The notes: generated by a model from the sequence alone, not told the origin. Positions 59,501-59,996 are shown, numbered from the whole stretch's first letter. The stretch is DNA of 61,627 bases, filler included, from Thermodesulfobacteriota bacterium (GCA_036381125.1; 5 parts of 5 records of this genome joined end to end with filler, not necessarily neighbours in it), one strand, 5' to 3'. Translations and numbers: made by a program.

Positions 59501-59996
59501 CGTCCGTGGAGATGCGGCAGAGCCCCTTCGGGACGGCCAGTCGGCCCTTCGAGATCAGCGACGAGAGCCGGCCGTAGCCGTCGCGCGTGGTGGCCAGCGC
59601 CACGACGACGTCGTCCGGCTCCGGCAAGGCGTCCGCCGTGCGGGTCGTGGCGCCGCTGGCAGGTTTGCGGGAACGCGGCCCGCGGAGCGGGCCCCGCCCG
59701 GAGGGCGGAGCGCCGGCAGAGCCGTCCGTTGCCGGGATCTCCCCGTCCGTCAGGTGCAGCTCGCTCCCGTAGATCAGCTTGAGGGGCGCCCGCCGCTCCT
59801 CCTGGCGCCCGACGAGGCCGAACCGATCGAGCAGCGCCTCGCGCGCCTCGACCACGCCGTAGAGGCCGTTCACGTCGGTGATGGCGAGCGCCGGCAGCCC
59901 GAGCGCGACCGCCCGGTCGATCAACTCCTCGGGCGAGGAGGCGCCGTCGAGGAAGGTGAAGTAGGTGCGGCAGTGCAGCTCGGCGTACGTGGCCAT
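56574..59996 (-). CDS. dnaE2: Error-prone DNA polymerase DnaE2 (ImuC)
   Basis: YAELHC..FTFLDGAS.PEEL, QGRGSAANS, PPDIDLD, GFPESHAAAF and the diagnostic C-terminal SRDFH. Confidence 0.97.
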   Translation of the reverse strand: MATYAELHCRTYFTFLDGASSPEELIDRAVALGLPALAITDVNGLYGVVEAREALLDRFGLVGRQEERRAPLKLIYGSELHLTDGEIPATDGSAGAPPSGRGPLRGPRSRKPASGATTRTADALPEPDDVVVALATTRDGYGRLSSLISKGRLAVPKGLCRISTDDLCEAASGGGMVLLAGGPRSRAMRLVRQRDLEGAARSLARLREAAGDRLHVELVRHGAPGDLPRSRAMAALAKAMGIPLVATNDVHFHDRARKPLHDVLRCIRDGVTLETAGLRLLPNGEAHLKSPRAMAARFADLPEAVARAGELAAGIGFRLCEVTYHYPVRDVPPGTTPDAFLARIAREGLEARLGAKAAAYGARLEKELALIADLGYAGYFLTMWDVVQECRRQGILCQGRGSAANSLVCFALGITSVHPDEIDMLFERFVSKERHEPPDIDLDIEHEERERILQYVYEKYGRQHAAMVAEVIRYRSRSAVREVGKAMGLSEIQVGRLTTFLSHRWDDLDDRALAAAGFDPKSPRLARLFEFASALEGFPRHLSIHTGGFVLSDRPLAETVPIENGRMENRTIIQWDKNDVDAMGMFKVDLLGLGMLSMIARAFDLLAAHRGIHMDLASVPQDDRATYEMLAEADSVGVFQVESRAQMNMLPRLRPREFYDLVVQVAIVRPGPIHGQMVHPYLRRRQGLEPITYPHPALERILRRTCGVPLFQEQVMRIAEAVGGYTPGEADQLRRDMAAWRRSGRMSRHEAKLREGMLANGIAPEFAERIIEQIRGFGEYGFPESHAAAFARLAYVSAYLKRHYPLEFTCALLNAQPMGFYSVSVIVNDAVRHGVRVLPPDVQASEWDSTLEEVAAPGSTRAGDGLGGAPGSTRAGDGDGPPGRAEENGPGRKHLALRLGLRTIRGLGEEAGKAIAAARRFGGPYASVESLVTRAGVPRKALVPLAAAGALANVPVPGATGDGGARRRAAIWHAAGVARDPGGVLAGASWPEAAAPLPPLTPMEAIAMDYHFAQASPGRHPLALQRGALDRQGVLSAEAFKRAAGPPARATVAGLVITRQRPAARGFVFLTLEDETGHVDVAVSPKVFRRFQHVIRFAPALVVRGRVVAEANVRNVAGDWFAPLRLGDHPVPTPGSRDFH
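57363..57432. repeat. 39-bp in-frame tandem repeat with a palindromic core inside dnaE2
   Basis: TCCGTC(A/G)CCGGCTCGGGTGGAGCCGGGCGCA at 57363 and 57402; encodes APGSTRAGDG twice. Confidence 0.85.
59667..59728. repeat. Double GNA-hairpin repeat copy inside the dnaE2 PHP domain
   Basis: GCGGGAACGC-GGCCCGC/GGA/GCGGGCC-CCGCCC/GGA/GGGCGG-AGCGCCGGCAGAGC; same layout as 33444-33593. Confidence 0.8.

Follow-up and report, generated by a model that had tools for sequence, protein, structure and literature searches.

How a single structured piece of DNA comes to lie both in an intergenic tandem array and, in frame, within the gene of an error-prone DNA polymerase is the question raised by a 61,627-nucleotide stretch, hereafter the window, from a Thermodesulfobacteriota bacterium (GCA_036381125.1). 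The window is composed of five contig pieces separated by N spacers (1-18421, 18522-29422, 29523-36651, 36752-54751 and 54852-61627), with a GC content of ~73% across it. The array and the polymerase gene dnaE2 are situated on separate pieces. The initial annotation, made from the sequence alone, described an element of two adjacent hairpins at 33444, again at 33542 without its 5' flank, and once more inside dnaE2, and took it for a mobile palindrome family akin to the repetitive extragenic palindromes (REPs), selected for DNA structure and tolerated in coding loops. Direct reading of the sequence confirms the observation, with the 5' flank of the second copy differing from that of the first, and the interpretation is partly supported. 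What emerges seems to be a small repeat element, structured and of a previously undescribed kind, present in three copies (A, B and C).

A Y-shaped repeat at two unlinked loci

The copies and the parts of copy C are as follows.

33444-33503, + strand: copy A, with hairpin 1 at 33454-33470 and hairpin 2 at 33471-33485 (74.9 bits)
33532-33591, + strand: copy B, core from 33542, with hairpin 1 at 33543-33557 and hairpin 2 at 33559-33573 (74.0 bits)
59667-59728, + strand: copy C, inside dnaE2, with the 5' flank GCGGGAACGC (70.9 bits)
59674-59676 with 59710-59712, + strand: outer helix of copy C, 3 bp
59677-59693, + strand: hairpin 1 of copy C, 7 bp, GGA loop
59694-59708, + strand: hairpin 2 of copy C, 6 bp, GGA loop
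59724-59728, + strand: end of the conserved tail of copy C, up to GTCCG

The bit scores derive from a covariance model built from A, B and C, and hold by construction. Each copy spans ~60 nt and consists of a 6-7-bp hairpin, followed directly by a 6-bp hairpin and then by the motif AGCGCCG. Stem 1 is 7, 6 and 7 bp long in A, B and C, respectively. As the initial annotation had stated, stem 2 is different in each copy yet fully paired (CCGGGC/GCCCGG, CGGCCC/GGGCCG and CCGCCC/GGGCGG), and the loops are invariably C-GNA-G. Both loops are GAA in A and in B, and GGA in C, so that loop changes are limited to GAA to GGA, twice, at the middle (free) base, and all six are closed by C-G. Every loop of the element is accordingly a G-N-A triloop with C-G closure, and GCGAAGC itself is present in both hairpins of A and in hairpin 1 of B. 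The very stable type of DNA mini-hairpin forms with GNA triloops only, and GCGNAGC melts at 70-76 C (PMC13037366). This stability, which the initial annotation cited, is published, as is the Rickettsia precedent that it invoked (PMC10969869).

In all copies, the three bases 5' of hairpin 1 pair with the three bases 3' of hairpin 2, and this outer pairing makes the 39-nt core a three-way junction, or Y. The same Y fold is both the minimum-energy and the centroid structure of all three 39-nt cores under DNA parameters, with z scores of -2.8, -3.1 and -2.7 (-2.69 for copy C) and only 0, 2 and 3 of 200 shuffles folding equally well. On this structure 47 of the 48 cells are paired across the three copies, and compensatory double changes affect four of the 16 pairs, a number reached by 10 of 500 shuffles, while slid registers give at most one such pair. 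The repeat therefore stands at two unlinked loci with its Y structure kept via compensatory changes, which upholds the earlier description of it as a structure-conserving repeated element.

The likeness among the copies is also far above chance. Identity ranges from 82 to 88% (88% over 50 nt for B and C, 82% over 49 nt at the lower end), and the local alignment scores of 70 (C-B) and 53 (C-A) are reached by none of 2910 and 2919 natural windows, respectively, which score 17.8 +/- 3.4 with a maximum of 38. Adjacent GNA-loop double hairpins with stems of at least 5 bp occur three times in the 61-kb window and not at all in a background of 1,045,398 bases from other high-GC genomes; single GNA hairpins outside the three copies are no commoner than in the background. 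The covariance model peaks at 27.8 bits in those 1,045,398 bases, and after A, B and C its best match in the window has 17.7 bits. B and C further share a longer tail, AGCGCCGGCAGAGCGGTCCG, ending in GTCCG, which in both copies is found 13 nt past AGCGCCG. A coding origin was considered for this pair and rejected. Although B and C encode an identical 12-residue peptide in one + frame, with four silent differences, no real open reading frame (ORF) uses that frame at either locus, and the silent pattern follows from pair geometry, since one pair has its two partners at third codon positions.

Copies A and B belong to an array lying between two convergent genes.

32062..33444, + strand: gene of a TolC-like outer membrane efflux protein (Pfam OEP), start codon provisional
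33444..33531, + strand: array unit 1, with copy A
33532..33619, + strand: array unit 2, with copy B
33614..33674, + strand: decayed third array unit, in the expected 88-nt register (17.7 bits, E = 0.036)
33697..36498, - strand: gene of an MMPL-MlaC fusion, convergent with the TolC-like gene, start codon provisional

The array unit is the full 88 nt, as recorded by Tandem Repeats Finder (TRF; period of 88, 1.9 copies and the window's top score, 204), and the Pfam assignments (OEP, and MMPL with MlaC) bear out the annotated placement of this period between convergent tolC and MMPL genes. The array fills the gap between the two, beginning at the final base of the TolC-like gene's TAG stop codon. 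Its spacers are not inverted copies of the core, given that 12-79% of natural windows score as high when cores are compared with the spacers of their own array, and 14-95% do so over all core-spacer inverted comparisons.

A location exactly between convergent genes, beginning at a stop codon, favors a role in RNA or transcription, in which the array would serve as a factor-independent terminator or 3' stabilizer and the dnaE2 copy would be incidental or regulatory; the GC-rich stems are, moreover, strong as RNA also (z = -2.17). Such a role is nonetheless quite improbable. The array has no U tract, a terminator and promoter scan of it returned 0 sites, and a whole-window Rfam scan gave nothing for the element at gathering score, its local matches having E values of 1.5 or worse. 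Within dnaE2 the element is antisense, so that the mRNA would carry UNC loops, and the conserved loop G and A with C-G closure seem to suit the DNA mini-hairpin rule rather than any known stable RNA triloop. At the two loci alike, the GNA loops are on the + strand, which is sense-downstream of the TolC-like gene at one and antisense to dnaE2 at the other, and the same strand in such different transcription contexts fits a feature of the DNA strand better than one of mRNA. Together with the G-N-A and C-G rule of the loops, this argues for DNA rather than RNA as the level at which the structure matters.

The in-frame insertion in dnaE2

Copy C lies within one of two inserts in dnaE2, and the second of these matches a further locus.

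56574..59996, - strand: dnaE2, error-prone DNA polymerase of 1140 aa (P0001), ORF open with all domains despite two inserts
59618..59728, + strand: insertion of 111 nt (37 codons) at residues ~91-127 of P0001, with GTCCG at 59613-59617 and 59724-59728
57309-57431: second insert in dnaE2, residues ~856-896, missing from the four closest orthologs
40022-40115: repeat with a period of 39 nt, in the Pro/Ala-rich linker encoded by a SPOR-domain gene (39829-40398, + strand), on another contig piece

The dnaE2 product has the complete set of domains of its family (PHP, polymerase core, finger, HhH and OB; five Pfam families, above or near the curated cut-off), and its closest homologs are labeled as error-prone DNA polymerases by their sources. 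The loop that receives copy C is 48 aa long in P0001 as opposed to 11 aa in P0004 (84% identity) and 4 aa in P0005 (81%), and is at most 14 aa in 14 of the 16 aligned orthologs, with the difference in length from P0004 being exactly 37 residues. In the AlphaFold2 model (mean predicted local distance difference test, pLDDT, of 74.8), residues 88-123 fall below a pLDDT of 50 and are located between strands 73-82 and 129-135, in agreement with the annotated low-complexity insert between PHP strands. AT-ending codons make up 5 of 38 in the insert compared with 2.3% in the rest of dnaE2 (Fisher p = 0.0024). The dnaE2 copy is thus a secondary, compositionally foreign and lineage-specific in-frame insertion: it is a multiple of three in length, leaves the ORF intact, occupies a disordered loop between strands and is lacking from 14 of 16 orthologs, P0004 and P0005 included. 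The anticipated absence from DnaE2 orthologs was in this way verified, and the insert is not a conserved protein feature.

Two readings that would deny any insertion of the element are addressed by these data. The first holds that a low-complexity, G/P/R-rich loop was selected in the DnaE2 protein, its DNA likeness to the array arising from GC-rich composition. It could draw on the long loop (30-31 aa) of two of the 16 orthologs, P0007 and P0038, the former with a G/R-rich stretch. However, the DNA match to the array far exceeds the natural GC-rich background, the hairpins are retained in the non-coding copies, the third-position composition of the insert is foreign, the two closest orthologs are without it, and its peptide is found in no other protein searched. 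This protein-level account is largely refuted already, and is very improbable. The second, a misjoining of the repeat into dnaE2 during metagenome assembly or binning, is suggested by a window of short contig pieces that probably come from a metagenome-assembled genome. It is equally hard to credit in view of the colinear dnaE2 sequence on both sides, a length of exactly 37 codons and a frame that is open over 1140 codons.

The element itself accounts for only the right 62 nt of the 111-nt insert. The left ~50 nt resemble the array spacers no better than shuffles do and do not match copy A or B; rather, they form an imperfect inverted repeat of the right part of copy C (score 29 vs 16.1 +/- 3.3, attained by 0.3% of natural windows), which, as one of 18 comparisons, is suggestive only. 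An 8-nt direct repeat (7/8 matching; core GTCCG, + strand) is spaced at exactly 111 nt, and the presence of GTCCG at both ends leaves the insert boundary ambiguous by 5 nt.

The second insert of dnaE2, likewise lineage-specific, consists of a tandem pair of units that each carry a 7-bp hairpin, and residues 858-891 of its product likewise have a pLDDT below 50. With 13 of its 41 codons AT-ending (p = 7e-11), it is more foreign than the insert carrying copy C. It matches 40043-40115 in the SPOR-domain gene with a score of 61, as against 19.2 +/- 3.5 for natural windows, 0 of 2924 of which reach it, and the DNA common to the two genes is read on opposite coding strands. Given this match to another locus, the entry of short GC-rich repeats into reading frames seems to be recurrent in this genome.

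These features bear upon an unlikely alternative in which template switching, or microhomology-mediated repair, at GTCCG copied an array stretch, or one from an unseen relative, into dnaE2 a single time, with the left arm an inverted copy of the same stretch and only a handful of copies in the genome. Consistent with such an event are the restriction to two loci with no match in the other genomes scanned, a microhomology of 5-8 nt at the insert junctions, and the left 50 nt, which invert the right part of copy C itself and not that of A or B, as a local fold-back predicts. Against it, copy C differs from both array copies by 12-18% and shows compensated stem variants of its own, so that neither A nor B is its direct donor; dnaE2 has also received a second, unrelated repeat; and, if the pieces are a random sample, capturing both of only two loci in ~1-2% of the genome would be very unlikely.

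As a separate observation on the same PHP loop, the more distant DnaE2 orthologs P0007/P0123 and P0038 have 30-31-residue inserts of their own following the YGSE motif. That of P0007 is G/R-rich and is aligned loosely by MAFFT with the insert of P0001. These loop inserts could be either diverged copies of the element or independent events at a permissive loop.

Probable spread of the element and its likeness to known repeats

The element is probably, although we hold this with modest confidence, a lineage-restricted, structure-constrained and dispersed DNA repeat, acting in the manner of REPs, miniature transposable elements with inverted repeats (MITEs) or Rickettsia palindromic elements (RPEs), and tolerated in coding loops. 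Such a family would extend beyond the two loci seen and have many more copies elsewhere in the genome; if the contig pieces sample the genome at random, a yield of two loci in 61 kb would translate into tens to hundreds of loci. In this model, the conserved unit of ~60 nt would fold, when single-stranded, into a Y of two adjacent C(GNA)G mini-hairpins, and would spread via a single-stranded DNA intermediate recognized by a structure-specific enzyme. The most plausible candidate for this enzyme would be a Y1/HUH transposase acting in trans, by analogy with REPs, REP doublets forming hairpins (REPINs) or elements derived from IS200/IS605 insertion sequences, and insertion may adjoin GTCCG. The 88-nt array would then have grown by slippage or unequal recombination. 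At the other locus, a 111-nt piece carrying the element entered a short, length-variable surface loop of the DnaE2 PHP domain in frame, and is read through as a disordered 37-residue stretch that DnaE2 tolerates. A bolder version regards the element as a new class of single-strand-structured mobile DNA, with a rabbit-ear three-way junction of two G:A-sheared mini-hairpins as its recognition module, moved next to GTCCG by a structure-specific enzyme, abundant in an uncultured high-GC lineage, and repeatedly seeding disordered protein loops, twice in DnaE2 itself. This version is speculative, and we judge it improbable.

Several results weigh against a dispersed mobile family. Only two loci are seen, comprising three good copies and one decayed unit, and the covariance model finds no further copy in the 61 kb besides these. 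Covariation statistics come close to their upper limit with three sequences, and do not separate selection from palindrome-templated correction; beyond the core, stretches of 86-126 nt have no significant folding advantage over shuffles (z = -0.6 to -3.1). As for the GTCCG direct repeat, it is short, and the copy on the right is part of the conserved tail found in copy B as well. None of the 121 ORFs scanned in the window matched transposase families, Y1/HUH among them, at E <=1e-5.

Searches elsewhere gave a similar picture. Contigs of 185,579 species genomes were scanned with a 22-base skeleton common to all three copies, which gave 65 matches at 63 loci, none with both stems of at least 6 bp; the best had stems of 9 + 4 bp (L006). 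Upon checking of their stems, these matches were dismissed as chance matches and an unrelated repeat of Olsenella and Atopobiaceae. Searches for translated copies in 5.8 billion and 1.84 billion proteins gave no further copy; such searches are insensitive because B and C share hardly any five-residue word in the dnaE2 frame. The 42-aa insert, compared with proteins longer than the query, matched only itself, and a search with the alignment of B and C in the + frame gave 4992 candidates, none at E <=10. A profile built from all three copies as read in the dnaE2 frame returned two matches among the 1.84 billion representatives, both rejected as translated tandem repeats with only a PLRG-like word in common. 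A plasmid BLAST match in a Skermanella coding sequence was likewise set aside, being at chance level and without the hairpins. Nothing relevant to a comparable element was found in the open literature searched.

The repeat encountered in the genome scan is of interest in its own right. It is found in Olsenella, Atopobiaceae and Coriobacteriia (L001, L005, L009, L011, L014, L016, L024, L026, L027, L031, L038, L040, L046, L053 and L059). Its conserved GCGAG/CGAAGCGAGCGA core has variable inverted repeats on its flanks, and it has the look of a REP-like family belonging to that clade.

Among known systems, the initial annotation drew the comparison with REPs, to which REPINs are added here. The element is like them in being a short GC-rich palindromic repeat with compensatory change, for which a single-stranded DNA hairpin is the presumed substrate; REPs and REPINs are mainly intergenic and often lie between convergent genes, as does the array. 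A REP is defined by a GT(A/G)G tetranucleotide directly upstream of the palindrome, and some Pseudomonas REP classes have a CGAAG loop (PMC3686654); REPINs are treated in PMC3116915 and PMC3337134. This conserved head is missing here, as GTAG occurs near one of the three copies only, in A, where it precedes stem 1 by 10 nt and shares bases with the TolC-like gene's stop codon, and B and C have no GTAG on either strand. Furthermore, the element joins two adjacent, dissimilar hairpins with a closing helix in place of one palindrome, and its array copies are direct rather than the inverted doublets of REPINs, with a weak inverted partner in copy C alone (p ~0.003). A genome carries REPs by the tens to hundreds, nearly always in intergenic positions, as opposed to two loci in 61 kb here, one of them intragenic. 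Their cognate REP-associated tyrosine transposase (RAYT) is flanked by the repeats, and the RAYT/HUH gene between hairpins that the initial annotation proposed to look for did not appear among the 121 window ORFs. The term REP-like holds as an analogy and fails as membership, for want of an adjoining GTAG head and of an inverted partner in the array.

The terminal inverted repeats of MITEs may have a counterpart in the imperfectly inverted left and right parts of the 111-nt insert, and their target-site duplication in the GTCCG repeat (8 nt, 7/8) flanking it, the right copy of which is within the tail common to copy B. RPEs insert in frame at sites compatible with the fold, with the ORF kept and orthologs without the insert (PMC10969869). 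Copy C is similarly a structured repeat in frame, at a fold-compatible position of an unrelated housekeeping-type gene, unlike RPEs in its host (a high-GC uncultured bacterium), in its length (111 nt vs ~150 bp) and in the one gene affected in this sample. RPEs are not known to have a GNA double hairpin of this architecture, and the likeness drawn here is one of function.

The Y architecture is closest to Palindromes II-III of Streptomyces telomeres and to the 3' rabbit ears of parvoviruses, for which PMC4513846 describes adjacent C-GNA-G hairpins with sheared G:A pairs and a flanking helix that form a Y on single-stranded DNA. Unlike telomere palindromes, both loci lie in the interior of their contig pieces (29523-36651 and 54852-61627), where ordinary genes extend for kilobases to either side, and the loops are GAA or GGA where those of the telomeres are GCA. 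A weak BLAST match of the insert to telomere palindromes in pSglau1 (E = 8e-3) is at chance level, and the likeness is therefore a structural analogy only.

Two further groups offer partial parallels. Elements derived from IS200/IS605 have subterminal hairpins at a fixed distance from a short specific flank and no clear terminal inverted repeats. The element likewise shows no such repeats clearly, and the position of GTCCG 13 nt past AGCGCCG is reminiscent of this arrangement, with any target specificity resting on two copies (B and C), and, unlike in IS200/IS605, no tnpA or tnpB gene is seen in the window. Mycobacterial interspersed repetitive units are tandem units of 40-100 bp in an intergenic gap, abutting the upstream stop codon, and are not known for a conserved double hairpin. 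The 88-nt array, which occupies an intergenic gap and abuts the stop codon of the TolC-like gene, is like them in this regard.

The well-studied families of small structured repeats are nearly all from Proteobacteria and Rickettsia. The present repeat obeys the rule for the most stable DNA mini-hairpin known, builds a Y-junction instead of a simple palindrome, and has added 37 residues to an intact polymerase gene. Should the family be abundant, it would allow selection on the structure of single-stranded DNA to be tested cleanly in nature, give a template for finding the mobilizing enzyme, and provide an example of non-coding repeats turning into protein loops in high-GC genomes; as a two-locus curiosity it would warrant a minor annotation note.

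Neighboring genes and other structured features

Directly upstream of dnaE2 is an ORF at 60006-60659 (- strand) without a Pfam match, beyond which the next gene encodes a short-chain dehydrogenase. The usual partners of dnaE2, imuA and imuB, are not evident on its contig piece. At the other locus, the MMPL transporter with a C-terminal MlaC lipid-binding domain (33697-36498, - strand) is an unusual domain combination, and along with the convergent TolC-like gene might mark a lipid-export system.

At the start of the second contig piece (18522-18575), a 7-bp GAA-loop hairpin on the - strand overlaps another hairpin, and a gene starts just downstream. These hairpins could be a terminator or a partial relative of the element cut by the piece boundary. 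The first of them (18530-18546), at the very edge of the piece, was considered as a copy and not counted, as it corresponds to hairpin 1 alone and scores 14.5 bits.

Rfam also places a manganese (yybP-ykoY) riboswitch at 28479-28574 (+ strand; 55.4 bits, gathering score) directly upstream of an ORF for a GDT1-family cation transporter (28500-29234), and a tRNA gene at 40442-40515 (+ strand; 65.4 bits). The tRNA gene is followed at 40526-40556 by the longest perfect hairpin in the window, with a 14-bp stem and an ATC loop, which is probably the terminator of that tRNA.

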